From: Candidatus Latescibacterota bacterium | Lineage (GTDB): Bacteria > Latescibacterota > UBA2968 | Direction: 5' to 3' | NCBI GenBank assembly: GCA_965116885.1 | Contig: OZ220741.1 | Span: 5,056,001-5,120,000 of the forward strand | Length of the DNA: 64,000 bases | Part shown: positions 20,887 through 64,000 of the stretch, one piece after another | How positions within the stretch are numbered: the stretch's first letter is position 1 | How the letters are laid out: each line of letters begins with the position of its first letter | Position numbers and translations under genes: made by a program | Notes under the pieces: model-generated | Databases searched by the model: none | The model's input: the letters and a program-made list of their open reading frames with translations, nothing else | Told to the model about the DNA's origin: nothing

Positions 20887-20935
20887 TGCATATTCATCTG
20901 TCTTATACAAATCACCTTGAAACGAAAGGAAAAGC

Positions 20936-25755: not shown

Positions 25756-27243
25756 ATGGCACATTCAAAACCCAACCTGCTCTACATACACTCTGACCAG
25801 CACGACCCTTATGTGACGGGCTGTTACGGCGACGAAGTCGTACAAACCCCCCATCTCGACAACCTCGCGGCAAATGGTGTTGTATTTGAAAACTGCTACT
25901 GCCCCTCGCCGATATGCGTACCCTCGCGCATGTCCATGTTATCGGGGCGCTATCCCTTTGAAAACGAAGTGTGGACAAACTCCCACATACTCAACTCGAG
26001 CATTCCCACATTTGCCCATGCCATGGGCGCAGGCGGTTATGATCCCGTGCTCGTCGGACGCATGCATTCCAATGGACCCGATCAGCTACACGGATATGCC
26101 CAGCGCCTCGTAGGCGATCACGGCCCCAATTATCCCGGTGGTGGCGGCGTCAACCACGGAATGCTCTCGGGCACAGCAGGTCCCGCCCGCGTCAGCCTGA
26201 CGAAATCGGGTATCGGGCAAAGTGCGTATCAGGTACACGATGAAGACGTAACCGCCGCAACCGTCGCATATCTCGACCGCCTGGGCGTAAAAAAACGCGC
26301 GGGACAACCCGCAGAGCCTTTCTCTCTCACCGTTGGATTTATGCTCCCCCACCAGCCATTTGTCGCGCGCCGCGCCGACTACGACCGCTACGACGGCCGC
26401 GTACCGCCCCCAACTGTCTCTGTCCCCTTCTCCGACGACCTGCATCCCCACATCAAACAATGGCGCGAACGCTGCGGCATTACAACTGTCACAGAAGCCG
26501 AAATCCACCGCGCGCGCACGGCATATTGGGCACTCGTTGACCGCATGGATCACATGATCGGGCAGATGCTCACAGCCCTCCGCCAAAACGATTTGATCGA
26601 CAACACCCTCGTCATTTACATGTCAGACCACGGCGAACAAGCTGGCGAACACGGCCTGTGGTGGAAACAAACCTTCTACGAGCATTCCGCCAAAGTACCC
26701 GCCATCCTCTCCTGGCCCGGTCACCTGCCCGAAGGCAAGCGCTTTGACAACGTCATCTCTTCTGTCGATCTCAACGCCACCATGATTGACGCCCTGCAAT
26801 GCCCCGAACTCCCCCACTCTCGCGGGCGTTCACTTCTGCCGCTTATGCGCGGTGAAAACACATCCTGGGACAACCTCGCCTTCTCCGAATTTTGTCAGGA
26901 TAGAGCAGGCGGTGGCGGTCCCTTCTCTGCCGAAGGTGTGTACCAGCGCATGATTCGGCAGGACGAATGGAAATTCAATTACTATCACAATCAGCCCTGT
27001 CAACTCTTCAACCTGAAAGAAGACCCCAACGAATTGCACGACCGCGCAAATGACCTCGCTTGTCAAAGCCTGATCAGAGACTTCACCGCCCGCATCCTCG
27101 ACGGCTGGGATCCCGACGCCATTGCATCTCAACTCGCCGCCCGAAACAGAGACTCCCGCATCCTCTCGGCATGGGCACGCCACACCAAACCCGCAGATAC
27201 GATCCGCTGGGACTTGCGCCCCGAAATGGATTATCTGGAATAG
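25756..27243 (+). CDS. Formylglycine-dependent sulfatase (choline-sulfatase-like)
   Basis: PNLLYIHSDQH, CVPSRMSMLSG, SDHGE, LFNLKEDPNE. Confidence 0.92.
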   Translation: MAHSKPNLLYIHSDQHDPYVTGCYGDEVVQTPHLDNLAANGVVFENCYCPSPICVPSRMSMLSGRYPFENEVWTNSHILNSSIPTFAHAMGAGGYDPVLVGRMHSNGPDQLHGYAQRLVGDHGPNYPGGGGVNHGMLSGTAGPARVSLTKSGIGQSAYQVHDEDVTAATVAYLDRLGVKKRAGQPAEPFSLTVGFMLPHQPFVARRADYDRYDGRVPPPTVSVPFSDDLHPHIKQWRERCGITTVTEAEIHRARTAYWALVDRMDHMIGQMLTALRQNDLIDNTLVIYMSDHGEQAGEHGLWWKQTFYEHSAKVPAILSWPGHLPEGKRFDNVISSVDLNATMIDALQCPELPHSRGRSLLPLMRGENTSWDNLAFSEFCQDRAGGGGPFSAEGVYQRMIRQDEWKFNYYHNQPCQLFNLKEDPNELHDRANDLACQSLIRDFTARILDGWDPDAIASQLAARNRDSRILSAWARHTKPADTIRWDLRPEMDYLE

Positions 27244-27251
27244 CGGTGCCT

Positions 27252-28400
27252 ATGAAAACCGAACTCACCAGACTCGATTTGGCCTGCTGGGGCGGGTTTA
27301 TGATGTTTGCCACCAGCGGTGTCGTCACCCCGATATGCCTGCCCGAAATATCCAGAACCCTGTCCATCTCCCTCTCTGAAAGCGGCGGTCTGGAAACCGC
27401 GCGAACATGTCTTTTGCTCGTCGTCTTAATCCTGTCCGGCATCCTCGCGCGCAAATGGGGGAAAAAACATTTTGTGACCTGGGGACAATATCTCCTCGCC
27501 ATCGGCCTTCTCATGATCAGCTATGCCGACAGCTATCCCATGCTCATCCTATCCCTCATGGTCACTGGCATCGGCGGTGGATTCACCGAAGCCCTCATCA
27601 ATCCCCTCGTCATCGACATTCACCCCAAAGACTCGGGCAAATACCTCAACATCACCAACGCCTTTTACCCCGTCGGCGTCATGGTCTCCGCACTCCTCTT
27701 TGGCGAACTCCTGACCCTCGGATATTCCTGGCGACTCGTGTTTCGCATCGCTGCAGCGGGTGCGCTTTTCATGGGCGTCTCATTCCACCTATCGCGTTTT
27801 CCCATACCCGTAGCAGATCAGCAATCATCCAAACACCTGATTGCACAAATTCTCAAAACGCCCAAATTTTGGCTCTTTGCCATCGCCATATTTTTGGGCG
27901 CAGGTGTCGAAGCGGCATTCACATTCTGGAGCCGCAGCTATGTAGAAACCTATCTACAAGACATGCCCCGCGCCGGTGCAATCGCAGTTGTCCTCTTTGC
28001 GATCACAATGGCACTGGGCCGCTTACTCTCTGCAAAATTGTCCCAAATAATCAGCCTGAAAACCCTGATGCTCGGTTCCGCTATCCTCGGTGTCGTCGTC
28101 AGCAGCGGCATTCCCTTCTCCGAAAACCTGATCGGATTTTACATCCTGCTCCTTTTCGCTGGATTTGCAACCGCCTGCTTCTGGCCCACCATACTCGCCG
28201 AAGCCGCGGAACACTTGTCCTTTGACACCACCATGCTCTTTGTCGTACTCGCCTGCTTTGGCATTGCCGGATTTGGCCTCATCCCCTATATCATGGGCGT
28301 CATCGGAGACAGCGCTGGCCTGAAAGCGGGTTTCTCTGTTATCCCCGGTCTCTTTATCGGCTTGATCGTTGTCTTGGCTTTCACGGAACGTAGAGCGTAA
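27252..28400 (+). CDS. MFS transporter
   Basis: About 12 hydrophobic segments; GILARKWGKK motif A; start at ATG 27252. Confidence 0.88.
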   Translation: MKTELTRLDLACWGGFMMFATSGVVTPICLPEISRTLSISLSESGGLETARTCLLLVVLILSGILARKWGKKHFVTWGQYLLAIGLLMISYADSYPMLILSLMVTGIGGGFTEALINPLVIDIHPKDSGKYLNITNAFYPVGVMVSALLFGELLTLGYSWRLVFRIAAAGALFMGVSFHLSRFPIPVADQQSSKHLIAQILKTPKFWLFAIAIFLGAGVEAAFTFWSRSYVETYLQDMPRAGAIAVVLFAITMALGRLLSAKLSQIISLKTLMLGSAILGVVVSSGIPFSENLIGFYILLLFAGFATACFWPTILAEAAEHLSFDTTMLFVVLACFGIAGFGLIPYIMGVIGDSAGLKAGFSVIPGLFIGLIVVLAFTERRA

Positions 28401-28433
28401 TTAACAAAGCCAAGGAATTCCGCCTTACTCCCC

Positions 28434-28460
28434 GGGCGGGCACAGGGGCACCGCCCCTAC
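28434..28460 (-). repeat. GTAG-type REP-like palindrome between convergent genes
   Basis: Minus strand GTAGGGGCGGTGCCCCTGTGCCCGCCC: GTAG followed by a GGGCGG...CCGCCC stem. Confidence 0.65.
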
Positions 28461-28478
28461 TATGCATTGATTCGCCAA

Positions 28479-30002
28479 TCACCCCGGCGGCCAAACTGTT
28501 TTTTTCGTATATGCCTCTTTCAGATCGCGCCAATACCGCCTGCCCTTGTGAACCAGATTTGTCGGCGCAAACCGCTTGTTCAAACCCTTCTCGTGACTCG
28601 ACCGCCCCGTATCGGTTCGATATTGCAATGTGAACCGCATCAACTGTGCGAGCAAATCAAAACGCACATCTGCATATTCTGGATCGGCCCAAACATTCGC
28701 GATCTCACCCGGATCTTCGCGGTGATCGTACAACTCTCCCTCATCCAGGCTCCCGTAAAACACCAGCCGAAAATCGCGCGTGCGAATCGCCGACACCTTG
28801 CCCCCGGGATTGCCCCAATCCCACTCGCAAAATGCCGCGTCTTTGCCATCTGCCCTGCCATTCACAATGGGAACCAAATCGCGCCCATCGCGCCCATCGG
28901 GAATGGGAATATCGCAGAGACGACACAGTGTGGGATACCAATCGACCGATTCGACAATCGCATCACATGTCGCGCCCGATGGACCACCCGGATAGCGCAA
29001 GACAAAAGGAATGCGGTGAATAGAATCGTAAATTCCAAAATTCTTGTGAAACAACCCGTGGTCACCCGCAAAATCCCCGTGATCCGCGCAATACAACACC
29101 ACGGTATTCTCCAACTCTCCCACCTCGTCCAGATAATCCAGCACCCGCCCAATTTCGGAATCAATCGCCGTAATCAGCGCGTAATAACTCGCCAAACAAC
29201 GCTTCAAACGATCGGGATTTGGATCAGCCAGCGGATACCCACACCCATCGGCCAACCGCTCTTGCATAAACTCGGGCTTGCTCGCAAAGCGACGCTCAAA
29301 ATAATCAACCGCACTATCGGGCAACACCATCTCATCGGGATTGTACATATCAAAATGCTCTGCCGCAGGCGCGATCGGCGCATGGGGCCTTTGAAAACTC
29401 ATGTGCAGAAAGAAAGGCCGCTCATCGTCCCGCTCCTTCAAAAACGCCAGCGACTCATTGCCCGTATAATGCTCAATCGAATGCTGGTATGGCAGTTTGG
29501 CTGGCGCACTGCCATCCATTGTATATTCCTGCCCGGGTCTGGCCGAGCCTTCCTCGTAAAAATCCGACAACCCCAGATCTTCCAGATACTTAAAATAGTG
29601 CGTCTCGGTTGGATCCAAATGCGTCGCATCGCACAAATCCGTATATCGGATGCGCTCAAAACCATCTTCATCCCAGCGTCGAACCATGTGCGCCTTGCCA
29701 ATCACAGCCGTTTGATACCCGTATCTCCGAAACTGACACGCCAGCGTATTGGGATTCGCCTCGGGAATCTCCGAATGATCATTGCCAAACATCCGATGCG
29801 TATGGCAATACTGCCCGGTCATAAAACAGATCCGCGACGGCGAGCAAATCGGATTATTGCAAAAAGCGCGTGTAAACACCACCCCCTCATCCGCAATACG
29901 GTCCATATTTGGGGTCCTGACATTTGGATGCGCTGCAAATCCCGTGCAATTGGCATTGTGCTGATCCGACATCAGCCACAACACATTGGGTCTTCTCGCC
30001 AT
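28479..30002 (-). CDS. Formylglycine-dependent sulfatase
   Basis: PNVLWLMSDQH, CSPSRICFMTG, ADHGD, LYDHREDPGE; start MARRPN at 30002 with upstream AGGAG. Confidence 0.92.
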   Translation of the reverse strand: MARRPNVLWLMSDQHNANCTGFAAHPNVRTPNMDRIADEGVVFTRAFCNNPICSPSRICFMTGQYCHTHRMFGNDHSEIPEANPNTLACQFRRYGYQTAVIGKAHMVRRWDEDGFERIRYTDLCDATHLDPTETHYFKYLEDLGLSDFYEEGSARPGQEYTMDGSAPAKLPYQHSIEHYTGNESLAFLKERDDERPFFLHMSFQRPHAPIAPAAEHFDMYNPDEMVLPDSAVDYFERRFASKPEFMQERLADGCGYPLADPNPDRLKRCLASYYALITAIDSEIGRVLDYLDEVGELENTVVLYCADHGDFAGDHGLFHKNFGIYDSIHRIPFVLRYPGGPSGATCDAIVESVDWYPTLCRLCDIPIPDGRDGRDLVPIVNGRADGKDAAFCEWDWGNPGGKVSAIRTRDFRLVFYGSLDEGELYDHREDPGEIANVWADPEYADVRFDLLAQLMRFTLQYRTDTGRSSHEKGLNKRFAPTNLVHKGRRYWRDLKEAYTKKTVWPPG

Positions 30003-30105
30003 AAATTTCTCCTTTCGCAGTGTATGTGTTTGCAGACTATGAGATAAAGCATTAAATTGTCTCTGTTTAATGAAAATAAATTGATCTTTTGCAGAGGAAA
30101 ACACC

Positions 30106-31455
30106 ATGTTTTTTGACAACATCGCGCTCGGCGTACCCAAAATTTTGCTCCCAAATCCCGAAATCGATTGCAACAAATGGGCAGTCATTGCCTGTGACCA
30201 GTATGTACACGACATATCGTATTGGGAAGAAGTCAAAAGCATCGTAGGAGACACGCCATCAACCCTGGACCTCATCTATCCCGAAGTCTATCTCTACGAC
30301 GACGAACACGAAGAACGCATTGCCAGCGTACACAACAACATGAAACACTTTGTCACCGATGGCATTTTTCGCGACGAAACCGAAGGCTTTTTGCTCGTCA
30401 ATCGCGTTCTGCCTTCTGGAAAATCGCGCAAAGGACTCGTCGTAACCCTCGACCTCGAGCATTACGACAGCCGCAGCCAGTCCAAAACCCTCATCCGCAC
30501 AACCGAGGGCACCTATCCCAAAAATCTCGAAGCGCGTTTTGAAGTTCGGGGCAACGCCTCCCTCGAATCACCGCATATTTTAGTACTCATCGACGATCCC
30601 AAAAAAGAAATTATCGAACCCCTCTTTGACGAAAACCATCCCAAGATCGTCGATTTCGAACTCATGATGAATGGAGGACAACTCAAATATCACTTAATCG
30701 ACAACCAAAAAGACATTGCACGCATTGCCCAAAAACTCGCCAAACGCATTGAACCCGATTACATCCATCAGAAGTACGGCGTCGAAAACGAAACACTCCT
30801 CTACGCCATGGGCGATGGCAACCACTCATTTGCCGCCGCGCAAAAAGCGTGGGAAAAAACCAAATCAACACGCAATGATACACAACGCACAGCACAACAT
30901 CCGGCCAGACACGCCATGGTCGAACTGATCAATCTGCACGACGACGCGATAGATATAGAGCCAATCCACAGACTGATCACCCGCGTTGATCCAAAAACCA
31001 CCTGCAACACCCTCGTCACACTGCTCAACACATCGGGCACCCGGGCACGCCTGGAAAAAGTCTCATCCCCCGACGCGCAACATCGTCGCACCGCAGCCCT
31101 ATCATCTGCATCCACCCATTGCCTCCCCTATCGCGCCGCGGGAGACCTGGGCATACTTGTAATCGAAGAACCATCTCAAAGAACCATACCCGAAACAATG
31201 GAAGCCGCGCTCGACCTGTTCACGCGAGAAAACACCGAAGCCGAAGTCGGATTTATCCACGGCGAAGACGTAATCGACGACCTCGGCAACAAACCCGACG
31301 CCCTCGGTTTTTACATGCCTCCCATTTCAAAGGACAGCGTCTTCGAATCCATTGTCCGCTACGGCGCATATCCCCGCAAATCCATATCCATTGGACACGC
31401 AGACGAAAAGCGTTACTATATGGAATGTCGAAGCCTTGTCCGTACTAAACGATAA
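30106..31455 (+). CDS. DUF1015-family protein
   Basis: KWAVIACDQY, LIRTTEGT, YAMGDGNHS, YPRKSISIG, KRYYMECR. Confidence 0.82.
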   Translation: MFFDNIALGVPKILLPNPEIDCNKWAVIACDQYVHDISYWEEVKSIVGDTPSTLDLIYPEVYLYDDEHEERIASVHNNMKHFVTDGIFRDETEGFLLVNRVLPSGKSRKGLVVTLDLEHYDSRSQSKTLIRTTEGTYPKNLEARFEVRGNASLESPHILVLIDDPKKEIIEPLFDENHPKIVDFELMMNGGQLKYHLIDNQKDIARIAQKLAKRIEPDYIHQKYGVENETLLYAMGDGNHSFAAAQKAWEKTKSTRNDTQRTAQHPARHAMVELINLHDDAIDIEPIHRLITRVDPKTTCNTLVTLLNTSGTRARLEKVSSPDAQHRRTAALSSASTHCLPYRAAGDLGILVIEEPSQRTIPETMEAALDLFTRENTEAEVGFIHGEDVIDDLGNKPDALGFYMPPISKDSVFESIVRYGAYPRKSISIGHADEKRYYMECRSLVRTKR

Positions 31456-40385: not shown

Positions 40386-40422
40386 TATAACTTATTTATG
40401 GCATGTGTGCAAGGTGAAAGAT
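40386..40422. repeat. Left 37 bp direct repeat flanking the sterol island; contains a minus-strand promoter-like motif facing dtd
   Basis: tataacttatttatggcatgtgtgcaaggtgaaagat; 32/37 identical to 48125-48161; reverse complement TTGCAC-17-TATAAA. Confidence 0.75.
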
Positions 40423-40445: not shown

Positions 40446-40478
40446 TGTCATCGCGGCATGGTGTTGAGCCGCGATCCA
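40446..40478 (+). repeat. Short palindromic element of GTCAT...GATCC type
   Basis: tgtc-ATCGCGGC-atggtgttga-GCCGCGAT-cca, perfect 8 bp stem. Confidence 0.55.
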
Positions 40479-40506: not shown

Positions 40507-40535
40507 TTGTCTTTTATTTCAGATATTCATATTAT
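40507..40535 (+). promoter_or_regulatory. Putative sigma70 promoter upstream of RND-P450-SMT
   Basis: TTGTCT-17 bp-TATTAT. Confidence 0.5.
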
Positions 40536-40605: not shown

Positions 40606-43600
40606 ATGAACACAGATGACAATTTCCACGGGGAACGCCCCGGACCGATAGCCTACATGGCTGGCAACAGTGTAGCCGCCAATCTATTGATGTGGGCTAT
40701 CATCGCCGCCGGGCTGGTATCGCTGACCGGACTCGACCGGGAAGCGTGGCCCACCACTCCCTTCTACCATATTGAAGTGTCGATGGCCTATCCCGGCGCC
40801 ACACCGGAGGAGATCGAGGAGTCGATCGTCGTCAAGATCGAAGACCAGGTCAGTGGATTGGATGACGTGAAGGCGGTCAAGTCCGTATCGGCTCCGGGTA
40901 TCGCATCCGTGCGGGTTCAAATGGATTTCGATACGGACATGGCTCGGGCGTTAAACGATATCGAGTCTGCCGTCAATCGCATACAGTCTTTCCCTGCCAG
41001 TGCCGAACGTCCCAGTTTCAAGGAGATGACCAACCGCATGAGCATGATGCGACTCATTGTTTATGGCGATGTGCCCGAGCGTGCGCTGAAGGAATTGGCG
41101 TATCAGATCAAGGATGAACTCACGGCTCTTCCCTCCGTCTCCCAGGTCGAGGTCAGCGGTATTCGGAAATACGAGATCTCTATCGAGGTACCGCTTCATC
41201 GGCTAAGAGCACTTGGACTCACCCTCACCGACATAGCCAACACGATTCGTCGCAGTTCCCTGGACTTGTCTGCCGGCAGTATCAATACCCGGGAATCCCA
41301 GGTGCGGGTCAGGACCCTGGGGCAGAACTACGACCAACAGGATTTCGAAGATATCGTCCTTCTCAGCAGCAGCGATGGCACAGTCCTGCGGCTTGGCGAT
41401 ATCGCCGAGGTTCGCGACGGCTTTCAGGAAACCGACCTGATTGTCCGGCACCAAAATCATCCCGCTGTGTTCGTCGAGGTCTTCCGGGCCGATGGTGAGC
41501 AAGTGATGGATGTCGCCACGACCGTTCGGGAGCACCTGGCGAACGAGGTGATCCCGTCCCTGCCCGACGAGGTGGGCGTCAGCATGTGGAATGACGAATC
41601 CCAGGTCTATGAGGAACGCGCCGATCTTCTCCTCAAGAACGGTATTCTGGGCCTGTTGCTGGTCTTGATCGCCCTGAGCCTGTTTCTCGAAATCCGGCTC
41701 GCGCTTTGGGTCGCCGTGGGCCTCGCCGTTTCGGGAATCGGCGCCCTCGCCATCATGATGGCATTCGACGTGGCGATCAACACCATCAGCCTGTTCTCCT
41801 TTGTCCTCGCCATAGGAATCATCGTCGACGATGCCATCGTCGTGGCCGAGCACATTCAATACGAACGCAAGCGGGGAACACCCGGAGTCACGGCCGCGAT
41901 TCGCGGCGTACGGCGGATCAAGGTGCCGTTGACGTTCGCAGTTCTGACGTCGGTGGTGGCCTTCGTCCCGTTGCTGTTCATTCCCGGCGGCGTCGGTGAG
42001 GTGTGGCGGGCCCTGCCGATCATCATGATCGCCATGCTGCTGGTTTCCCTGGTCGAATCGCTGCTGGTGCTGCCCAACCATCTGTCCCACCTGCACGGCC
42101 CGGAGTGGGTGCCGGCCAATGCCTTCGACCGGTTCTTCGCGCGGCTCCAAGGGCGCGTTGACGCGCTGCTGAACAGGTTCGTCCAAGGCCCGCTGGACCG
42201 GGCCCTGCAGTTCGCCACCGACCAGCCCGCGGTGACGATGTCGGGGGCTGTGGGAATGCTCGTGCTGAGCATCTCCCTATTGCCCGCGGGAATCGTTCCT
42301 ACCACGCTGGCCGCTGACGTGGAGGGGGATATCGCGACGGTCGTCCTGGAGATGCCCGATGGGGCGACCGCTCCGAGGACGTACGAAGTGGCCCAGGAAC
42401 TGGAGGCCGCCGGCCACCGGGTCATCGAACGACTCTCGCGCGACCGGCCCGGGGACGCGCCACCGCTGCTGACCGGCGTAACGGTGACCGTCGGACAGGG
42501 CTCGAGACTCGCGGGCGGGCTCAATCCGGAGCCGACCCTCAATCCGCAAGCCAACATCGCCACCATTGAGTTCAAACTCCTGGGCGCCCAACAGAGAGAA
42601 ATCTCCACCGGAGAGGTCGTGCAGGCATGGCGGGAAGAGGTGGGGGTGCTGCCCTACGTACGCGGCATCACCTTCAGCGGCGAGGCCTTCGACTTGGGCA
42701 ACCCGGTGGAGGTTGTGTTGTCGCATCCGGACCCGGAGCACCTTGCCCGGATTGCAAACTCCGTGGTCAATGGACTCCGCGGGGTGGGAGGCGTTTTCGA
42801 CATACGTTCAGACCACACCCCGGGCATCCCGGAAGTTCAACTCGGGTTGCGGCCAGAAGCGCGAACCCTCGGTCTCACACTCGACGATCTGGCCGGGCAG
42901 GCGCGAGCCGCATTCTTCGGCGCAGAGGCCATCCGGATACAGCGCGGTCGGGAGGAGGTCCGGGTCTATGTGCGCCTGCCCTCCGATGAACGAAAATCCA
43001 TCACCGATGTCGAAGGATACCTGCTCCGTACGCCGGGCGGGGCCGAGGTCCCGGTCCTGAGTGTGGCCTCCCTGAACCCGGGGGTGTCGCCGCCGGCCAT
43101 TCGACGGAAGGACGGCCAGCGCGTCGTCACGGTCACTGCGGACGTGGATGCTTCGGTGATTTCAGGCGACGAAGCCAACGACATCCTGACCAATTCGATC
43201 CTCGCGGATTTGACCACCCTGCACCCGGACCTGACATACAGCTTCGGAGGGGAACAACAACAGCAGCTCGAATCCCTGGATGCGCTGTATCGCGGATTTG
43301 CGATTGCCCTGCTCTTGATCTTCGCGCTGCTCGCCATCCCCCTCCGATCCTATACAAAGCCGTTCATCATCATGGCCGTCATCCCCTTCGGGTTCATCGG
43401 AGTGATCCTGGGGCACTGGGTCCTGGGAGTAGCTCTGAGTGCCGTATCTTTCATGGGTATCTTCGGCCTGAGTGGGGTGGTCGTGAACGATTCCCTGGTC
43501 ATGATCGATTTCATCGATCAGAGAATCGGAGAAGGTACCTTGGCAAGGACGGCGATCGTGGAGGGCGCCAAGGGGCGCTTTCGTCCGATCATGCTCACTT

Positions 43601-43800
43601 CCGTGACTACGTTCCTCGGCTTCACTCCCCTTATTCTGGAACGCGCCATCCAAGCCCAGTTCCTGATCCCCTTTGCCGCCTCGCTCGGTTGCGGCATTCT
43701 CTTTACTACGGCTATACTCATGATGATCGTTCCCGCACTTTACACCATCCATCTGCGTCTGATTGCTTCGCGGGGCCGTTCCGGCGCCGGTACCGGGTAA
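40606..43800 (+). CDS. RND (AcrB/AcrD/AcrF-family) permease
   Basis: YPGATPEEIEE, GIIVDDAIVVAE, GVVVNDSLV, RFRPIMLTS; 1064 aa with two large periplasmic loops. Confidence 0.95.
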   Translation: MNTDDNFHGERPGPIAYMAGNSVAANLLMWAIIAAGLVSLTGLDREAWPTTPFYHIEVSMAYPGATPEEIEESIVVKIEDQVSGLDDVKAVKSVSAPGIASVRVQMDFDTDMARALNDIESAVNRIQSFPASAERPSFKEMTNRMSMMRLIVYGDVPERALKELAYQIKDELTALPSVSQVEVSGIRKYEISIEVPLHRLRALGLTLTDIANTIRRSSLDLSAGSINTRESQVRVRTLGQNYDQQDFEDIVLLSSSDGTVLRLGDIAEVRDGFQETDLIVRHQNHPAVFVEVFRADGEQVMDVATTVREHLANEVIPSLPDEVGVSMWNDESQVYEERADLLLKNGILGLLLVLIALSLFLEIRLALWVAVGLAVSGIGALAIMMAFDVAINTISLFSFVLAIGIIVDDAIVVAEHIQYERKRGTPGVTAAIRGVRRIKVPLTFAVLTSVVAFVPLLFIPGGVGEVWRALPIIMIAMLLVSLVESLLVLPNHLSHLHGPEWVPANAFDRFFARLQGRVDALLNRFVQGPLDRALQFATDQPAVTMSGAVGMLVLSISLLPAGIVPTTLAADVEGDIATVVLEMPDGATAPRTYEVAQELEAAGHRVIERLSRDRPGDAPPLLTGVTVTVGQGSRLAGGLNPEPTLNPQANIATIEFKLLGAQQREISTGEVVQAWREEVGVLPYVRGITFSGEAFDLGNPVEVVLSHPDPEHLARIANSVVNGLRGVGGVFDIRSDHTPGIPEVQLGLRPEARTLGLTLDDLAGQARAAFFGAEAIRIQRGREEVRVYVRLPSDERKSITDVEGYLLRTPGGAEVPVLSVASLNPGVSPPAIRRKDGQRVVTVTADVDASVISGDEANDILTNSILADLTTLHPDLTYSFGGEQQQQLESLDALYRGFAIALLLIFALLAIPLRSYTKPFIIMAVIPFGFIGVILGHWVLGVALSAVSFMGIFGLSGVVVNDSLVMIDFIDQRIGEGTLARTAIVEGAKGRFRPIMLTSVTTFLGFTPLILERAIQAQFLIPFAASLGCGILFTTAILMMIVPALYTIHLRLIASRGRSGAGTG

Positions 43801-43831
43801 TGCACTTCATGATGCAGGGAGGCAGAAACCG

Positions 43832-45865
43832 ATGGCTAATAATACCGAGGATTTGACGCCCCAATCGCTAAGTCTCACCGAAGAGCTCATCCTGATGCTC
43901 CTCAACGAGGAGACTGGCTACTTTCACCAGGTACCCGGCTGGCATTTGAACTGCGCCGTGGTCGGTGCCGTGCTCGCGGAGCTTTCACTCAGATCGCGCA
44001 TCGACACGGACCTGGAATCCCTGTTCCTCGTGGACGAGTCGGAAACGGGGAGACCTACCCTGGACCCCATTCTGAAAGAAATCGCAGCCGAATCTGTTCA
44101 ACGGAACGCCCAGTACTGGATCGAACGGCTCGCTCCCCGTGCGGAATCGATCATTGATTCAGTTCTGGACCGCCTGGTTGACCTGAAGATCCTGGAATAT
44201 CACGACGGTGAATTCTGGACACTGGCTCCTACCGTCTGGCGTGGGGAACTGTCCAGCAAGTCGGAAGAGGGCACTGCAGGCCAGTTCATAAAAACGCGGA
44301 TCAGCAAGGTCATCTTCACCGACGAGATTCCCGATCCGAGAGATGTCATCATTATCTGCCTCGTCAATACCTGCGATGTCTTTCGTTTCATATTCCAGCT
44401 CGACGACGAGGCGGAGGAGCGCATCGAGTTCATCTGCAAGATGGATCTGATCGGCCGCTCCCTGGCCTCTGCGGTCTCTCAGAACCTCGCTGGCCCAGCC
44501 CTCCGACGTCCTGCCCTTGCCAGAAAAATTCCGACGGTTTCGCTGCCCAAGCTGCTGCTGAACCCGCATAGTCGAGACGGCAACCTGAACGCGCTCTTCG
44601 GAAACCTTGCAGAGGAGTACGGTCCGGTGTTCCAGATCCGCCCTCCCTTCTCGAAGCCCATGATCTTCCTGGCCGGGCTCGAGACAAACCGCTGGGTGCA
44701 CAAGCGCGGGCGCATGTACCTGAGAGCCAGGGACTACTTCAGCGACTTCGAGAAGGTCTACGGCGCGTCCGGCGTCCTGCCCGCCCTGGACGGAGCCGAT
44801 CACTTCCGGCTTCGCCGGTCCCTGTCGCCCGCCTATTCTGCCGTGAGGCTGGGAGGGCAACTGGACCAGCTCTACAATCAGGGGCGCAAGTACATGGCGA
44901 GCTTGACTGTTGGGGACTCATACCGCGCCACGTCCATGTGCCGGGAGATGGTGAACGCCCAGCTCTCCCCACTGTTCATCGGCGTCGATACCCAGGACCT
45001 CATGGACGACCTGATGGCGTACAAGGAACGGGCCCTCAGCGTTCACGTCGCCAAGCTCCTGCCCAGATTCACGCTGAACACCCCGGGCATGAGACGCCGG
45101 GCTAAAGCCCTGGACACACTGATGCAGCGGGTCCAGGACATCCATACCCCTGCCCAACGGGCGGACAGCCCGCGGGACCTGGTGGACGATTACCTCAGCC
45201 TGCACGCGAGCGACCCGCAGTTTCTCCCAGAGTCCAACCTGCTGTTCTCCTTTTCCGCGGCCTTGATTGCCAGCGTGTACCTCGGCGATACGTTCAGCCT
45301 CGTAGTCTATGCCATGGTGTCGCAGCCCGACCTCTACGCCAGAATCCAGGCCGAAGCAGATGCCCTGTTCGCCAAGGGAGACCCCGAGAGAGAGGATTTC
45401 ACCCCCGCCAACATTGACGTTACCCACCGCTTCCTCATGGAGTGCATGCGCATGTACCCGATCGTCTCCATGTCCATTCGGAACGTGATGAATACGTGCG
45501 TGGTCGAGGACTACGAGCTGCCCATGGGGGAACGGATCCACATCGCCATGACCGCCACGCATTACATGAGCGAGGTCTTTCCCGACCCCTACAAGTTCGA
45601 CATCGACCGCTACCTGCCGTCGCGCCATGAGCATCGCAGCCCCGGGTACGCCCCGTACGGGCTGGGCACGCACAAGTGTCTCGGCACCCGGTGGATGGAG
45701 CTGCACCTGGCGGCCAACTTGTTGATGCTGGCGCACTACTTCACGATTGAGGTGTCGCCGGCGAAGTACAAGCACAAGCTCCGTTTCAGTCCGTTCCCGT
45801 CGCTGAAACCGAGCAAGAAGCTGAAGTTCCGCATCTCCCAGCAGAGACGGGAGCTGTTCACCTGA
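43832..45865 (+). CDS. GPP34/GOLPH3-like domain fused to cytochrome P450
   Basis: N-term LSLTEELILMLLNEETG...GAVLAELSLRSRID...TGRPTLD; C-term ECMR (ExxR), FPDPYKFDIDRY, YGLGTHKCLG heme ligand; RBS GGAGG before ATG 43832. Confidence 0.88.
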   Translation: MANNTEDLTPQSLSLTEELILMLLNEETGYFHQVPGWHLNCAVVGAVLAELSLRSRIDTDLESLFLVDESETGRPTLDPILKEIAAESVQRNAQYWIERLAPRAESIIDSVLDRLVDLKILEYHDGEFWTLAPTVWRGELSSKSEEGTAGQFIKTRISKVIFTDEIPDPRDVIIICLVNTCDVFRFIFQLDDEAEERIEFICKMDLIGRSLASAVSQNLAGPALRRPALARKIPTVSLPKLLLNPHSRDGNLNALFGNLAEEYGPVFQIRPPFSKPMIFLAGLETNRWVHKRGRMYLRARDYFSDFEKVYGASGVLPALDGADHFRLRRSLSPAYSAVRLGGQLDQLYNQGRKYMASLTVGDSYRATSMCREMVNAQLSPLFIGVDTQDLMDDLMAYKERALSVHVAKLLPRFTLNTPGMRRRAKALDTLMQRVQDIHTPAQRADSPRDLVDDYLSLHASDPQFLPESNLLFSFSAALIASVYLGDTFSLVVYAMVSQPDLYARIQAEADALFAKGDPEREDFTPANIDVTHRFLMECMRMYPIVSMSIRNVMNTCVVEDYELPMGERIHIAMTATHYMSEVFPDPYKFDIDRYLPSRHEHRSPGYAPYGLGTHKCLGTRWMELHLAANLLMLAHYFTIEVSPAKYKHKLRFSPFPSLKPSKKLKFRISQQRRELFT

Positions 45866-45879
45866 CGACTTGGCTCCTT

Positions 45880-46941
45880 GTGGAGCCAGGGGGGAAATAC
45901 CACGAAATGCGGCTGTGCAAACTATCGAGAGAGCTGAGAGATGCGTACCGGGAATCGGACGTCGCACGTCGAGTGCAGCACTTCGACGGCTGGCTCGACC
46001 GGGCGGCGCTGGAGCCCGGTGGCGCGGGCGGGTACGATCACACGGAAACAGTGAAAGACTATTACGACCTTTGCAGCGGGTTCATGGTGTGGGGCTGGGG
46101 CCAGTCCCTGCACTTCGCGCCCCTCACGCCTCATGAGAGTCTGGAGGAGTCCAAGATCCGGCATCAGCGGCTGATGATTTCCAAGTTGGAACTGCAACAG
46201 GGTATGACGGTGATCGACGTTGGTTGTGGAGTCGGCGCCCCCATGCGCCGCGTCGTCCGTGAGGCTGGTGTCAGGGTTGTAGGAATCAACATCAATGAGA
46301 TCCAGTTGGAAGAGGCGAAGAGGTTGAACGCCGAGGCGGGGCTTGATCACATGGTCGATTTCGAGACGTGCAGCTTCATAGACATGAGCACCATCGAGGA
46401 CGGCACCTTCGACCGGGGTTATGCCATAGAGTCAACGTGCCATGCACCGGACAAGCAACGCGCCTTCGAGGAGGTATTCCGCGTACTGAAACCCGGTGCC
46501 CTGTTCTGGGGGCAGGAAATGTGTCTGACGGGCAAGTTCGATCCGAAGGACGACCGGCATCGGGCCATCAAGGAGGATCTCATGCGCGGCATTGCGCTGA
46601 AGGACATCGCCACCTTCGGGGAAGTGAATCACGCGCTCGAAGCCGCGGGATTCCAAGTCATGGAAGGGATGGACCGGGCGATCCAGGAAGGACCCTCCAC
46701 ACCTTGGTATCAACCCATGGAGAATCGCCATGGGACGGTCGGAAACGCCTTGCGCAGGCTTCCGTGGGGTCGTAAAGCCGTCATCACAGGATCGAAGCTG
46801 GCTGAAGTACTGCGGCTTTTTCCGAAGGGCTCCGCGGAAGTCATCCGACTCCTGGATCGGACCGCGGAGGCTTATATCGCGGGCGGCAAGGCGGGTATCT
46901 TTACGCCGCTGTACTGTTTCTTGGCTCGCAGGCCTCTTTAG
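45880..46941 (+). CDS. Sterol 24-C-methyltransferase (Erg6/SMT-like)
   Basis: YYDL...WGWGQSLHFA, DVGCGVGAP, YAIESTCHAP, EVFRVLKPG, GGKAGIFTP...ARRP; alternative start ATG 45907. Confidence 0.9.
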   Translation: MEPGGKYHEMRLCKLSRELRDAYRESDVARRVQHFDGWLDRAALEPGGAGGYDHTETVKDYYDLCSGFMVWGWGQSLHFAPLTPHESLEESKIRHQRLMISKLELQQGMTVIDVGCGVGAPMRRVVREAGVRVVGININEIQLEEAKRLNAEAGLDHMVDFETCSFIDMSTIEDGTFDRGYAIESTCHAPDKQRAFEEVFRVLKPGALFWGQEMCLTGKFDPKDDRHRAIKEDLMRGIALKDIATFGEVNHALEAAGFQVMEGMDRAIQEGPSTPWYQPMENRHGTVGNALRRLPWGRKAVITGSKLAEVLRLFPKGSAEVIRLLDRTAEAYIAGGKAGIFTPLYCFLARRPL

Positions 46942-46973
46942 GCCCGCCTGGCGCGCCTTCGCGCGGGCCCCTC

Positions 46974-48062
46974 TTAGTCGGAGACCGAGTCCCCACTTCC
47001 CTTCGAAATCGTCGGATCGGGATAGAACTGCCGGCAATACCGGCGGTACTTCCCTATGGGGCCATCTGCCCGACACAGCCTGGGGACAGACCGATACTGC
47101 TTCCTTTCCCAGATCACCACATCCTGCAGGACATCCCGTTTCTGTTGTGACATCAAAATGCGATTCATCAGCCTGTGGCGCAGCATCATCGGCAGAAACC
47201 CCAGACCTGAGATAAATCGCCGGGGCTTGCGGATTTCCCGCATCTGGCTGACCAGTGCAAGATCGATGAGGGTGCCGTCAATGGGGGTTGCGAGTACCCA
47301 CAATCTCGCATTCATATCAATAGTTTTCTCGTGGATCTCGACGAAGGAATAGCCCAGGCCATAGACGTGGGTGATAGCTGAGGTTTCGTACACGAGGTCC
47401 TTTACACCCAGGATCCTGCGAACGCGTTTGAAGTCGAAGCAACTCTTCAAATAGGCACCATCTACCGTTACCGAACCGATCGGATTCACATTGTCGTAAC
47501 CATGCACGTAGCGCAGGTGTCCCAGATCTACAGAGTTCTCTGTGGTTTCCTGGGGATGGCCGCGGAACCGGAGTATGTTGAATCCCAGTTCACCCCACTC
47601 TTGTCCAGTGGTTGGCTCGGCTGGCAAATCCCACTGCGACGGCCGACCGCCGCTCCCGAACCAGGCGAAGACCATGCCGAGAATCTCTCTGGTCTCATAT
47701 ACCTTCAGTTTCGCGGCTCTGGGTGCCGGGGCATTCGGCGTCGCAACGCATTGTCCGGTCGTATCGAACTCAAACCCGTGGAACGGACAAACGAGCCGAC
47801 CATTGTATATCTTCCCACCGACCTCCGGCCCCAGGTGCGAACCCAGGTGCGGACATACCGCGTCGGCCACGCAGACACGGCCTGCATCGTCGCACCAGAC
47901 AACGATTTCTTCGCCCAGCCACGTCTTCTCGATCAGTTTCTCTCGCAGAACGGATTCGCGGCTTGCGACGAAATACCACCCCTCGGGGAAAGGCGGTAGC
48001 GCATCAGCGACATTCCTGATCCGTCGATTAGTTCGCAAGCCTGCTGATTCCGTCAAAGACAT
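46974..48062 (-). CDS. Rieske non-heme iron oxygenase, cholesterol 7-desaturase (Neverland/DAF-36) / KshA-like
   Basis: FPEGWY, CPHLG, CPFHG, ENSVDLGHLRYVHG, QDVVIWERK, DGPIGKYRRYCRQFY. Confidence 0.85.
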   Translation of the reverse strand: MSLTESAGLRTNRRIRNVADALPPFPEGWYFVASRESVLREKLIEKTWLGEEIVVWCDDAGRVCVADAVCPHLGSHLGPEVGGKIYNGRLVCPFHGFEFDTTGQCVATPNAPAPRAAKLKVYETREILGMVFAWFGSGGRPSQWDLPAEPTTGQEWGELGFNILRFRGHPQETTENSVDLGHLRYVHGYDNVNPIGSVTVDGAYLKSCFDFKRVRRILGVKDLVYETSAITHVYGLGYSFVEIHEKTIDMNARLWVLATPIDGTLIDLALVSQMREIRKPRRFISGLGFLPMMLRHRLMNRILMSQQKRDVLQDVVIWERKQYRSVPRLCRADGPIGKYRRYCRQFYPDPTISKGSGDSVSD

Positions 48063-48124: not shown

Positions 48125-48161
48125 TATAAGCTATTTACGGCAGGTGGGCAAGGTGAAAGAT
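48125..48161. repeat. Right 37 bp direct repeat flanking the sterol island
   Basis: tataagctatttacggcaggtgggcaaggtgaaagat, ending next to the lptD stop codon. Confidence 0.75.
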
Positions 48162-50712: not shown

Positions 50713-50799
50713 GCGGACGTGGTGGAATTGGCAGACACGCCAGATTTAGGATCTGGTGGGGTAAAACCCGTGGGGGTTCGAGTCCCCCCGTCCGCACCA
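50713..50799 (+). tRNA. tRNA-Leu(UAG)
   Basis: GCGGACG/CGTCCGC acceptor stem, CCAGA-TTTAGGA-TCTGG anticodon arm, long variable arm, GGTTCGAGTCC, encoded CCA. Confidence 0.97.
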
Positions 50800-63078: not shown

Positions 63079-63144
63079 TGCGATGCTGTTCCTGACCATA
63101 TAAGCTATAGGACGTTCCCGTGCGGAGCCATCTTCCCGCTTCAT
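63079..63144 (-). pseudogene. 5' stub (~22 codons) of an RND permease
   Basis: MKREDGSARERPIAYMVRNSIA vs MNTDDNFHGERPGPIAYMAGNSVA at 40606; ATGA overlap with the adaptor stop codon. Confidence 0.7.
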
Positions 63145-64000
63145 GGATCACCTCTAACCGCAGTCTGCACCACCATGCCTTCAGTTGCAAACTGAATCCC
63201 GCCTATGACGACCGCCTGTCCGGCTTCCAGAGTGCCGGTTACGAACACCTTATCATCGGAACGCTGAAGGACGCGCACCGGGACGATGGTCAATAGTTTG
63301 TCATCGCGCACTGCCCAAATCTCGTTGCCTGGCCTGAGTGCTGACCGTCGCAAGATGAAGTACCGGTCTGGGATGATCCCCTCAATTCGTACTTTCACAA
63401 ACTTACCCACAAGAAGGGGCGGGCCAGGATCAGCATTTGCATCATCGCCATCTGCTCCAGCCCAGGTGCCGCTTGCAAAGGGGTCCGGAACGCGTACGAT
63501 AGCGTTGATGGTACGCGTCTGTTCGTCCAGAGATGCCTCCGCTCGGTCCACGTAGCCCTCCCAGGCGTAGCTCCTTTCGCCGTATTCAGCAATGACGCGA
63601 GCCTTGACCCGCCTGTCTCCGTCGCCCGCTTCCAACTCCCATAGGCCGGGGATGAGAACCGCGTTGGCGTCGGACAGGGGAACCACTACTTCGACAGCGT
63701 CGGCCGCGTAAAGTCGCCCTACGCTCTGGCCAGCTACCACGAATTGCCCCACATCTATCGACTCGATCCGCACGATTCCGCTGAAAGGCGCGCGCACCTC
63801 TGTGCGGGACAAAGCCAACTCAGCGTCAGCGAGCATGGCACTATCTCTGCCTAAAGCGGCTTGGGCAGCCTCGAGCTGAGGCTGCCGCAATACCAGAGGG
63901 CCAGCCTCCTTCAGCGACGTGCTATCCGCCTGACGGCGTTTATATTGCGCGTACTCAGCGCGTGCGATCCGGGACTCTTCCTCCTCCTGGAGAAGTACTA
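63141..64000 (-). CDS. RND periplasmic adaptor (membrane fusion protein), 5' end outside window
   Basis: RTEVRAPFSG, VGQFV, LDEQTRT, LLVGKFV, VPVRVL. Confidence 0.9.
   Translation of the reverse strand, partial: VLLQEEEESRIARAEYAQYKRRQADSTSLKEAGPLVLRQPQLEAAQAALGRDSAMLADAELALSRTEVRAPFSGIVRIESIDVGQFVVAGQSVGRLYAADAVEVVVPLSDANAVLIPGLWELEAGDGDRRVKARVIAEYGERSYAWEGYVDRAEASLDEQTRTINAIVRVPDPFASGTWAGADGDDANADPGPPLLVGKFVKVRIEGIIPDRYFILRRSALRPGNEIWAVRDDKLLTIVPVRVLQRSDDKVFVTGTLEAGQAVVIGGIQFATEGMVVQTAVRGDP

Follow-up and report, generated by a model that had tools for sequence, protein, structure and literature searches.

A horizontally acquired 7.7-kb island in a Latescibacterota genome encodes a putative sterol-lipid tailoring and transport module

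Within the 64,000-nucleotide stretch of a Candidatus Latescibacterota genome analysed here (the window), four adjacent genes encoding an RND permease, a GPP34-P450 fusion, a sterol-methyltransferase (SMT)-family enzyme and a Rieske oxygenase form a horizontally acquired genomic island. We interpret this block, with about even confidence, as a reduced copy of a horizontally spread module that would tailor and transport a sterol-like lipid of the polycyclic triterpenoid type, the substrate most likely being a sterol of the sponge host.

A four-gene island inserted between lptD and dtd

All four open reading frames are intact and lie where the first-pass annotation had placed them, and their Pfam matches bear out the families that it had named (Table 1). 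The fusion ORF (43763-45865) is open from a TTG at 43763, within the last part of the RND gene; its true start is likely the ATG at 43832, M1 being invariant in 28/28 aligned homologues. Similarly, the SMT ORF spans 45880-46941, and its likely start is the ATG at 45907, with database homologues of 344 aa. The Rieske oxygenase gene is convergent with the SMT gene.

Table 1. Features of the island and its surroundings, numbered from the first position of the window
Feature	Position	Strand	Evidence or remark
Direct repeat, left copy, 37 nt	40386..40422	.	23 nt upstream of dtd start
REP-like palindromic element	40447..40478	.	Inside left island border
Sigma-70-like promoter match	40507..40535	+	Consensus match, upstream of RND gene
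AcrB-type (HAE1-like) RND inner-membrane permease, 1064 aa	40606..43800	+	Pfam ACR_tran PF00873, 535 bits
GPP34-cytochrome P450 fusion ('GPP34_L')	43832..45865	+	Pfam GPP34 100.9 bits, p450 118.4 bits
Divergent SMT-family SAM C-methyltransferase, 344 aa	45907..46941	+	Sterol_MT_C 53.9 bits
KshA/Neverland-like Rieske non-heme iron oxygenase, 362 aa	46974..48062	-	Rieske 63.2 bits, KshA_C 77.9 bits
Direct repeat, right copy	48125..48161	.	Directly 3' of lptD stop codon
Orphan HlyD-type membrane-fusion protein (MFP)	63141..64000	-	Pfam HlyD_3; continues past window end

The block is, as first described, richer in GC than its surroundings: the cassette genes have a GC of 0.565-0.61 and a GC3 of 0.658-0.796, compared with 0.49-0.55 and 0.48-0.55 in the flanking genes and a whole-genome GC of 0.511. 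The island is a 7.7-kb insertion separating lptD and dtd, with a 37-nt direct repeat at both borders. The two copies are 32/37 identical; the 23-mer core of the repeat occurs exactly twice in the window (0/100 shuffles gave two matches), and the 37-nt repeat has only these two copies genome-wide. In 3/5 cassette-free complete congeners lptD and dtd are direct neighbours with 103-136 bp between them, which is the empty site, and the empty sites in genomes G117 and G150 each carry one repeat copy. Loci L002, L007 and L009 have the cassette at the same site, flanked by the same repeat pair, in larger islands (7.9-10.4 kb) with an extra MFP and a FAD oxidase. Composition shift, direct repeats and the empty site in relatives identify the block as a genomic island gained by insertion. 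Between the flanking repeats we found only the four cassette genes, and no integrase or transposase.

The sigma-70-like scan upstream of the RND gene gave one site against a shuffle mean of 2.7, and is thus not enriched. A blastn-short search of the genome with the REP-like palindrome gave 41 HSPs, of which about 20 are at least 27 nt long at 89% identity or more; the palindrome is a host-genome repeat and not island-specific. RNA-library contigs of four runs break on either side of this element. The stretch is contained in 20 of the 24 listed sequencing runs, mostly sponge metagenomes, and contigs from four RNA libraries (3 studies) match portions of each of the four genes at no less than 95% identity, which is not proof of transcription.

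The module is shared across many phyla

We compared 80 related loci, counting as orthologues proteins with at least 55% identity and at least 60% cover. The GPP34-P450 fusion and the Rieske protein each have orthologues in 65/80 loci and the RND permease in 40/80 (64-95% identity). The P450, SMT and Rieske genes occur together in 56/80 loci, so the genes do co-occur elsewhere, a synteny on which the first-pass annotation had made its cassette depend; all four are present in 34/80, and the gene order and orientation of the window are kept in 29/80. The four-gene grouping is not due to chance. The 56 genomes with this enzyme set around the SMT belong to at least 11 labelled phyla and are mostly sponge or coral MAGs, SMT identity across them being 72-95%. 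In the tree the cassette SMTs form a shallow clade that nonetheless takes in 11 labelled phyla, with 20 changes of label, and within the genus of the window the cassette SMT was found in 8/20 genomes searched. Judged from these sequence comparisons, the module would have spread horizontally among sponge symbionts of many phyla.

Loci without the AcrB-type pump carry MMPL/Patched-SSD (11 loci) or HAE3-like (12 loci) transporters in its place. The best NCBIfam match of the permease was the RND_permease_2 subfamily, at 431.6 bits and below the cut-off of 1250. We found no MFP or outer-membrane factor (OMF) gene in the island, so it does not encode a tripartite HAE1 RND pump; of the 80 related loci, 22 have an adjacent MFP and 14 an adjacent OMF. 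The orphan MFP lies 15 kb from the island and shares 78% identity with the MFP that immediately precedes the RND gene in L007/L009, from which we infer that it may be the adaptor of the island's permease. Elsewhere in this genome there is a paralogous RND operon, 61% identical. Compared with other loci, the island is missing the adaptor, the OMF, redox partners and the FAD oxidase (the last present in 37/80 loci), and the window's copy may therefore be only partly functional.

The three enzymes and their relatives

The first of the enzymes, the fusion, has its GPP34 domain at about 43874-44479 (Pfam cut-off 29.1 bits) and its P450 domain at about 44526-45865. Both domain and fold are of the GPP34/GOLPH3/Vps74 type: the predicted GPP34 part (pLDDT about 75-88) superposes on 3kn1 and 2zih with Z 17.2 and rmsd 2.8 A over 190-196 aligned residues. 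Having GPP34 and P450 in one protein, and coming from a stretch whose runs are labelled sponge metagenome, the fusion belongs with GPP34_L. This genome encodes three long and one short GPP34_L forms. The heme Cys and ExxR are retained in 63/63 homologues. Among solved structures, CYP51 comes closest to the P450 part, at 67.8 bits, leading a long list of weak PDB matches. The CYP51-type I-helix carries a His-Thr signature. Identity as a CYP51 sterol 14alpha-demethylase was rejected, since the I-helix (ASVYLGDTFS, where CYP51 shows AGHHTSS in the alignment) lacks the CYP51 type, though Cys ligand and ExxR are present.

The SMT scores well above the cut-off for Sterol_MT_C (PF08498, 21.7 bits) and also carries class-I methyltransferase domains PF08241 and PF13847; this domain and the class-I SAM methyltransferase fold place it in the SMT family. 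That much of the first-pass assignment held, whereas in the phylogeny the cassette SMTs form a clade separate from nine canonical neighbours (SH-aLRT 100), and the window's protein is 43% identical to the canonical SMT adjoining the cassette in locus L028. Its Region I, FMVWGWGQSLHF, reads GWGQSLHF where functional SMTs have GWGxxFHF, and the preceding YE[YF] is absent. The clade motif is MV[WYF]GWG[EQ]SLHF, against the canonical YE[YF]GWGxSFHF, and the F-to-L and YE-to-MV changes hold across 64 cassette SMTs when compared with the nine canonical neighbours. In Region II the window has DVGCGVGAP, with A replacing G, versus DxGxGxxGP, while GGP is kept in 55/64 clade members; Region III, YAIESTCHAPD, retains Glu. 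The GWGxxFHF and DxGxGxxGP residues are conserved in all functional SMTs covered in the available text of a 2025 preprint (10.64898/2025.12.19.695621). Departing from these residues, the enzyme may not accept desmosterol-type substrates, and with Region I altered across the whole clade we rejected its identity as a canonical C-24 SMT.

In the Rieske protein, the CPH...CPFH and E175-x3-D179-x2-H182-x4-H187 motifs are invariant in 28/28 homologues, and the Rieske cluster, the E/Dx3Dx2Hx4H iron site and the KshA_C domain make it KshA-type. KshA is its best PDB match (84.4 bits), in a sequence alignment limited to the N-terminal 175 or so residues. SdmA identity was rejected: the score was 32.7 bits, over the Rieske domain only, against a cut-off of 600 (NCBIfam NF052579), and the protein is 22% identical to the SdmA of L028. 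We found no KshB-type reductase or steroid-catabolic context in the island; the genome has seven ORFs with a Fer2 domain outside it. The nearest Atlas clusters of the protein are auto-named 'cholesterol 7-desaturase', which we take as a lead only.

What the module may act on

The first-pass annotation had seen no squalene epoxidase or oxidosqualene cyclase (OSC) in the window, had called for a genome search, and had proposed tailoring of exogenous sterols. The absence extends to the whole genome (a single 5.56-Mb contig, 98.4% complete), in which we found no OSC, hopene cyclase, squalene epoxidase, ERG24 or SdmA/B. Only 10/80 cassette genomes have an OSC-type cyclase, and 58/80 have no cyclase whatever. 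Because the genome is without sterol or hopanoid cyclase genes and 70/80 cassette genomes are without OSC, tailoring of a host sterol is the best reading. Sterol genes adjoin the cassette in 4/80 loci; in L028, a Nitrospirales coral MAG, the cassette abuts CYP51-ERG24-SdmA-SdmB-canonical SMT, with a fused SMO-OSC next on the same 70,077-bp contig. Extra canonical SMTs are present in eight loci.

The host sterol would reach the inner membrane, where the N-terminal GOLPH3-fold domain would hold the P450 at membrane or lipid. The P450 and the KshA-like Rieske oxygenase, with redox partners encoded elsewhere, would oxidise or desaturate it, and the SMT-family enzyme would transfer a SAM methyl to a side-chain olefin, with a specificity unlike that of ordinary C-24 SMTs. 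The AcrB-type permease, with the adaptor encoded 15 kb away, would then move substrate or product across the envelope. The exogenous-sterol proposal gains from the genome-wide lack of de novo sterol genes and from the L028 context, and loses from the non-canonical SMT, a P450 that is not CYP51, a Rieske protein that is not SdmA and the availability of endogenous squalene. We identified no sterol uptake system, which counts against a host sterol, and in the review file of PMC10070321 the authors write that for bacteria to methylate exogenous sterols 'would be challenging'.

The genome carries a complete HpnC/D/E squalene operon, all above NCBIfam cut-offs, through which it is predicted to make squalene, so that an endogenous substrate is available; with no cyclase to use it, an endogenous isoprenoid is a live rival. 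The module could act on such an acyclic isoprenoid, above all HpnCDE squalene, with the SMT methylating terminal isoprene units, the oxygenases hydroxylating and the pump exporting to outer membrane or host, as SMT-like triterpene methyltransferases of Botryococcus methylate squalene's terminal isoprene units. The altered SMT Region I fits a non-canonical substrate, and the HpnC-positive, cyclase-free state recurs in 30/80 cassette genomes. Indeed, 78/80 carry an SQS/PSY-family gene, so an endogenous acyclic isoprenoid is available nearly everywhere; in 12/12 sampled HpnC-negative genomes the single such gene best matches squalene synthase TIGR01559, below cut-off. However, HpnC is present in 21/21 genomes of the genus and the cassette SMT in 8/20, so there is no specific association between them, and the physical linkage of the cassette, where it exists, is to sterol-ring enzymes and canonical SMTs. 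In other settings KshA_C Rieske enzymes, like Patched-SSD transporters, go with polycyclic substrates, and an acyclic substrate leaves the restriction to host-associated bacteria unexplained. We therefore consider this reading unlikely, though worth keeping in play.

A detoxification/efflux or steroid-catabolic unit, in which oxygenases and pump clear toxic host terpenoids or steroids or start their degradation, is improbable: although AcrB-type pumps and P450/Rieske oxygenases are typical of xenobiotic handling, and KshA, the best solved relative of the Rieske protein, is a catabolic enzyme, an SMT-family SAM C-methyltransferase speaks for anabolic tailoring, ring-cleavage, beta-oxidation and KshB-type genes are absent from the island, the permease falls far under multidrug subfamily cut-offs and other lineages use Patched/HpnN-like lipid transporters in the pump's place.

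Least credible is that the fusion is a host-directed effector binding phosphatidylinositol-4-phosphate (PI4P) and modulating phagocytosis, as proposed in PMC11706023, among unrelated passengers: its GPP34 model does have the true GOLPH3/Vps74 fold and the fusion is reported there as exclusive to sponge symbionts, but its N-terminus has no hydrophobic signal-like stretch (by inspection), P450 activity requires heme and electron donors, synteny joins the fusion to the SMT, Rieske and lipid-pump genes in 56/80 loci, and paralogous copies are followed by a sulfotransferase (two cases in this genome, also in G003) or, in G054, stand directly after a hopene cyclase (hopene cyclase, GPP34-P450, sulfotransferase). 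In Vps74, W88 and R97 form the basic PI4P-binding pocket; in a weak alignment (E 0.06) the Arg97 column holds V, A, I or T in 63/63 homologues, and an invariant Trp lies two residues off W88.

Relation to known systems

The first-pass annotation did not know the combination as a described pathway; it is not wholly undescribed. The literature found, as far as its accessible text goes, does contain its halves and only these: GPP34_L (PMC11706023) and the bacterial SMTs (PMC10070321), among which 'Nitrospira sp., coral reef 2 of 2' appears to be a cassette SMT. The bacterial sterol clusters with SMTs (Brown et al., Nat Commun 2023, PMC10070321; Brown & Welander preprint, 10.64898/2025.12.19.695621) resemble the cassette in that, in PMC10070321, bacteria from sponges or corals have an SMT-family enzyme beside a Rieske oxygenase, and the L028 gene order matches the 'Nitrospira sp., coral reef' cluster there. 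They differ in that the clusters as presented in PMC10070321 carry SMO-OSC, CYP51, ERG24 and SdmA/SdmB for de novo synthesis, none of which is in the island, whose Rieske protein is KshA_C-type and whose SMT is in the separate clade with altered Region I.

With KshA (3-ketosteroid 9alpha-hydroxylase) and Neverland/DAF-36 the Rieske protein shares the Rieske cluster, the 2-His-1-carboxylate motif and the KshA_C domain; unlike KshA, it has no KshB-type reductase or catabolic context in the island. As with the sterol and hopanoid RND-superfamily transporters BstA (Methylococcus) and HpnN, a lipid pump is encoded beside triterpenoid enzymes, and other lineages, Dehalococcoidia among them, have HAE3, HpnN or Patched-like MMPL proteins in the cassette, but the window's pump is AcrB/HAE1-like, not HAE3, its BstA and HpnN model matches being far below cut-offs.

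The GPP34_L proteins were introduced as a hallmark of sponge symbionts (Ferreira et al., Microbiome 2025, PMC11706023). The fusion resembles them in its N-terminal GPP34 and C-terminal P450, sponge-symbiont origin and several copies per genome; there, PI4P binding and phagosome evasion are proposed, in a main text that, as available, contains neither 'sterol' nor 'methyltransferase'. The 7.7-kb insertion with its 37-nt direct repeat is new here. Unlike in that account, the window's GPP34_L gene belongs to a conserved island for putative lipid tailoring and transport, whose probable role is to modify a sterol-like lipid beyond the bacterium's own biosynthetic capacity.

The four genes of the cassette and their expression

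Four open reading frames occupy 40606..48062, where the first-pass annotation had placed a sterol-remodelling cassette, and profile searches of all four proteins upheld the families named there (see the table). The block is indeed richer in GC than its surroundings: the four genes have a GC3 of 0.66-0.80 and the flanking genes (priA, rodZ, maf, dtd, lptD and genes beyond) one of 0.48-0.55, in a genome of GC 0.511. Against the NCBIfam multidrug subfamily the RND permease scored 431.6 bits, far under the cut-off of 1250. The P450 heme Cys (YGLGTHKCLG) and ExxR are retained in 63/63 homologues, and its I-helix is unusual (ASVYLGDTFS), with the D-T pair retained and AGxxT absent. In the Rieske protein, CPH...CPFH and E175x3D179x2H182x4H187 are invariant in 28/28 homologues. 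Automatic ESM Atlas names near the cassette proteins ('cholesterol 7-desaturase' and a generic P450) were taken as leads only.

The SMT and Rieske genes converge, and the 32 nt that separate them are taken up by a GC-rich inverted repeat (GCCCGC...GCGGGC), seen by inspection, which may be a bidirectional terminator; promoter and terminator scans gave no enrichment over shuffles. Elsewhere the window encodes housekeeping functions, along with repeat proteins, sulfatases and Omp85/patatin proteins of the kind usual in sponge symbionts. Its eukaryote-like or host-interaction genes include those for a 1108-aa WD40 protein, a 2186-aa fn3/cadherin/CARDB protein, a patatin-Omp85 protein, other Omp85 proteins and two sulfatases.

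The window was present in 20 of the 24 runs listed, 14 of these holding at least half of its words; most of the runs with the window, which stem from 11 studies, carry the label sponge metagenome. Six RNA libraries among the runs hold 24-34% of its words. Contigs of four RNA libraries (three studies) match stretches of all four genes with an identity of 95% or more, several of them mismatch-free; transcription in the holobiont would account for this but is not proven by it. The lptD region is sparse in these contigs, a pattern that by the method's own caveat is unusable as evidence. Contigs break at 50719 and 50758 because of the conserved part of a tRNA-Leu gene lying between lptD and the next operon, and those of four libraries break at both edges of a 32-nt palindromic REP-like hairpin, a genome-wide repeat with about 20 near-full copies.

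Coordinates of the features discussed (window positions unless another sequence is named)
Feature	Sequence	Coordinates	Strand	Remarks
Eukaryote-like/host-interaction genes	window	3639-13562, 18574-23653, 25756-30275
Direct repeat, 37 nt	window	40386-40422 and 48125-48161
REP-like hairpin, 32 nt	window	40447-40478
AcrB-type RND permease	window	40606-43800	+	PF00873, 535 bits
GPP34 + cytochrome P450 fusion	window	43763/43832-45865	+	family profile matches
SMT-family methyltransferase with Sterol_MT_C domain	window	45880/45907-46941	+	53.9 bits, cut-off 21.7
Inverted repeat, candidate terminator	window	46942-46973
Rieske + KshA_C oxygenase	window	46974-48062	-	family profile matches
tRNA-Leu	window	50713-50799	+
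Orphan HlyD-type adaptor (MFP)	window	63141-64000	-	runs on to genome 5120364
HpnE-HpnD-HpnC operon	own genome, L095	5947-9354	-	G000:C1:823900-827400
Second lipid locus	own genome, L083	G000:C1:3150000-3169999
GPP34-P450, Sulfotransfer_3	own genome, L081	7539-10642	+	paralogue
GPP34-P450, Sulfotransfer_3	own genome, L082	6162-9295	-	paralogue
GPP34-P450, Sulfotransfer_3	genome G003, L118	3525-6681	-	pair recurs
Squalene-hopene cyclase, GPP34-P450, sulfotransferase	Acidobacteria MAG G054, L116	3728-8884	-	cyclase TIGR01507, 616.5 bits
OSC-monooxygenase fusion	L119	75-3701
OSC-monooxygenase fusion	L120	1336-4890

The cassette belongs to a recurrent module of sponge symbionts

More than 120 clusters have representatives that are 77-100% identical to the SMT, and a search of species-representative genomes gave 549 confirmed stretches, the best 80 of which were analysed. 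These 80 carry the labels Latescibacterota, Gemmatimonadota, Chloroflexota, Nitrospirota, Nitrospinota, Acidobacteriota, Actinomycetota, Rhodothermota, Binatota, Thermodesulfobacteriota and Pseudomonadota, and many of their isolate names are sponge or coral bins. The nearest named relatives are Candidatus Latescibacterota MAGs, which are 95-97% identical throughout the cassette and its flanks (L002). With orthologues around the SMT called at a minimum of 55% identity and 60% cover, the GPP34-P450 and the Rieske gene were each found at 65 of these 80 loci and the RND gene at 40. All three enzymes came together at 56 loci and the window's exact gene order and orientation at 29, with contig ends cutting into 17 of the 80; all four genes were present at 34, so that the set proposed in the first-pass annotation does co-occur in other genomes.

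Other genes recur at the same best 80 of 549 loci: an amine-oxidase-fold flavoprotein (37; best PDB relatives LkcE and the P. acnes isomerase entry 2b9w), an MFP (22), an OMF (14), a TPR protein (14), an OMP barrel (10) and two MMPL/HAE3-type transporters with Patched or sterol-sensing-domain matches (11 and 12), these last mostly at loci without the AcrB-type pump. Within the window's genus, 8 of the 20 genomes searched have the cassette SMT. The window cassette is real, and it represents a mobile module that recurs in sponge symbionts.

The cassette lies on an island with direct repeats and empty sites

The island is bordered by a 37-nt direct repeat whose two copies are identical at 32/37 positions and are the only ones in the whole window genome. 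The 23-mer core of the repeat occurs twice in the window, both times at the island borders, a number reached in 0/100 shuffles; no integrase lies between the two repeats. Five complete, cassette-free genomes of the genus were compared at this site. In three (G117, G150 and G108) lptD lies next to dtd at a distance of 103-136 bp, and in the other two the region is rearranged; the aligned empty sites of G117 and G150 hold a single repeat copy. The repeat pair is also present in the cassette-bearing relatives L002, L007 and L009, with spacings of 7,859, 10,429 and 9,146 bp, respectively, the longer islands having an extra MFP gene before the RND gene and that of L007 also a FAD oxidase. From the shared site and repeats, and from the larger islands of the relatives, we infer that the window island is a reduced derivative of one ancestral insertion. 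Near the end of the window, an orphan MFP gene is 78% identical to the MFP of the L007 cassette, which precedes the RND gene in related islands, and has apparently been separated from its pump.

The cassette SMT differs from canonical SMTs

Region I of the window SMT reads FMVWGWGQSLHF, as against YE[YF]GWGxSFHF in canonical SMTs (n=9, cassette neighbours), and the changes F to L and YE to MV hold across 64 cassette SMTs. Region III (YAIESTCHAPD) is retained, and the window's subclade (9/64 cassette SMTs) has the SAM motif DVGCGVGAP instead of ...GGP. According to a preprint (Brown & Welander, 10.64898/2025.12.19.695621), every functional SMT shares 25 conserved residues, among which are those of GWGxxFHF and DxGxGxxGP, and by that residue criterion the window SMT would be a poor candidate for desmosterol/24-methylenecholesterol methylation. 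The protein is nonetheless strongly constrained, with 78/344 columns invariant in the alignment across phyla, and a different substrate or regiochemistry is therefore likelier than decay. A quick ML tree with short path lengths joined the cassette SMTs in one clade (SH-aLRT 100), apart from the canonical SMTs; the phylum labels, some of which may be binning errors, need 20 changes on it against a minimum of 10.

The GPP34 domain and its paralogues

The model of the GPP34 domain (residues 12-216, pLDDT about 75-88) matched GOLPH3 (3kn1) and Vps74 (2zih) with Z 17.2 and rmsd 2.8 Å. The column aligned, in a weak phmmer alignment (E 0.06), to Arg97 of Vps74, which we take to be a PI4P ligand, is V, A, I or T in 63/63 homologues. 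The full-length AlphaFold model of the fusion has a mean pLDDT of 53.7 and an unreliable P450 half, and the P450 fold ranks are therefore uninformative. Because Ferreira et al. 2025 (PMC11706023) reported GPP34-Rieske fusions, the GPP34 domain and the Rieske oxygenase were submitted together to complex prediction; the score of 0.00 is evidence neither way.

The window genome encodes two further GPP34-P450 proteins (35-37% identical), each gene being directly followed by a sulfotransferase gene, plus one short GPP34. The pair recurs in another genome (G003) and, in an Acidobacteria MAG (G054), directly after a squalene-hopene cyclase gene and on its strand. These pairs are a candidate hydroxylation-sulfation module for triterpenoids, of which no description was found in the literature searched. 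No sulfotransferase is present in the best 80 of 549 cassette loci, and a metagenome contig scan with a sulfotransferase-linked paralogue returned only 5 distant P450s. The paralogue contexts, together with the reported GPP34-Rieske fusions, point to GPP34 as a lipid-handling accessory domain of triterpenoid oxygenases. The genome also has a second lipid locus, with two MpaB/Lcp-like oxygenases, an MFP, a P450 and an MMPL, LolA-like and DUF1302 set; its RND permease is 61% identical to that of the island.

Sterol or squalene as candidate substrates

Sterol tailoring is the best-supported reading of the module, although unproven, and our own judgement on it is evenly divided. The SMT, KshA_C and CYP51-nearest families point to it, as do the Patched-SSD transporters of cassette variants; among the best 80 of 549 loci, sterol-ring enzymes are physically linked to the cassette in 4 and extra canonical SMTs in 8. 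The window genome has no PF13243 cyclase, PF08491 epoxidase, ERG24, SdmA, SdmB or second SMT, so the lack of squalene epoxidase and cyclase noted at first for the window extends to the whole genome. The tailoring of exogenous sterols proposed on that basis agrees with this absence and with the sterol-type families, and stays unproven, squalene being available as an alternative. Across the cassette genomes (best 80 of 549), 10 had an OSC-type match, 17 an SHC-type match and 58 neither, counts to which MAG incompleteness applies, although many of these genomes are single-chromosome assemblies; two examples of each score class were checked and gave 721-728 bits with TIGR03463 (fused form) and 617-791 bits with TIGR01507 (other form). 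Single ORFs of ~1200 aa that join an OSC to an N-terminal flavin monooxygenase were seen in G019, G025, G027-G030, G045, G069 and G071, which are cassette carriers with sterol synthesis.

The main rival, that the module acts on endogenous squalene, seems to us improbable but deserving of weight. HpnC (324.8 bits), HpnD (309.5) and HpnE (407.4) of the window genome, encoded in a complete operon, all score above the NCBIfam cut-offs, with no squalene/oxidosqualene cyclase present, and 43 of the 80 cassette genomes (best 80 of 549), 30 of them cyclase-free, likewise have an HpnC that passes the cut-off. One SQS/PSY gene is found in 35 of the remaining 37, which are HpnC-negative by this cut-off; those sampled (n=12) have squalene synthase TIGR01559, not phytoene synthase, as best match, at 90-129 bits and under the 286.75 cut-off. 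Cassette hosts thus have wide access to squalene. However, HpnC is present in 21/21 genomes of the genus, cassette-free congeners included: squalene synthase does not track the cassette, and co-occurrence does not, therefore, decide between sterol and squalene.

Discussion

The module is a variant of known bacterial sterol gene clusters and of GPP34_L. De novo sterol clusters with SMTs have been described (Brown et al. 2023, PMC10070321), and the GPP34+P450 fusion, as GPP34_L, has been described as exclusive to sponge symbionts and proposed to bind PI4P to evade phagocytosis (Ferreira et al. 2025), in an article from whose main text both 'sterol' and 'methyltransferase' are absent. The gene order of L028, a Nitrospirales coral MAG locus, and of its continuation (cassette SMT, Rieske, OMP, FAD oxidase, canonical SMT, SdmB, SdmA, ERG24, CYP51 and a 1208-aa monooxygenase-OSC fusion) matches that of 'Nitrospira sp., coral reef' in PMC10070321 (SMT 2, three genes, SMT 1, sdmB, sdmA, ERG24, ERG11, SMO-OSC). 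A member of the cassette SMT family ('Nitrospira sp., coral reef 2 of 2') has therefore probably been assayed already. In the literature searched we found no paper treating sterol methyltransferase and GPP34 jointly and no description of the cassette as a unit. The first-pass annotation knew of no such four-gene pathway; that stands for the whole cassette and not for its parts, GPP34_L and bacterial SMT clusters being published. The insertion signature of the island, direct repeats with empty sites, is new here.

A wider reading, which we consider unlikely, is that a mobile module of sponge symbionts from many phyla acts on host sterols by non-canonical side-chain methylation (e.g. at C-26/C-28, not C-24) and ring or side-chain oxidation, with the paralogous GPP34-P450-sulfotransferase pairs adding sulfation. 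If true, bacteria unable to synthesise sterols would make part of the 'unconventional' sponge sterols and would be a partial source of the sterane biomarkers interpreted as sponge fossils, and the GOLPH3-fold domain would be a triterpenoid-handling module of bacterial oxygenases and not a PI4P effector.

The module brings together the GPP34-P450 fusion and the bacterial SMTs, two signatures of sponge symbiosis published without connection to each other, in one mobile unit of lipid tailoring and transport, most carriers of which are unable to make sterols. It gives a testable alternative to the PI4P/phagocytosis model of GPP34, and its clean insertion site and empty-site congeners are natural plus/minus comparisons. 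If the substrate is host sterol, these bacteria would remodel animal membrane lipids inside the holobiont, which would bear on the persistence of symbionts, on the makers of unusual sponge sterols and on methylated steranes as animal biomarkers.
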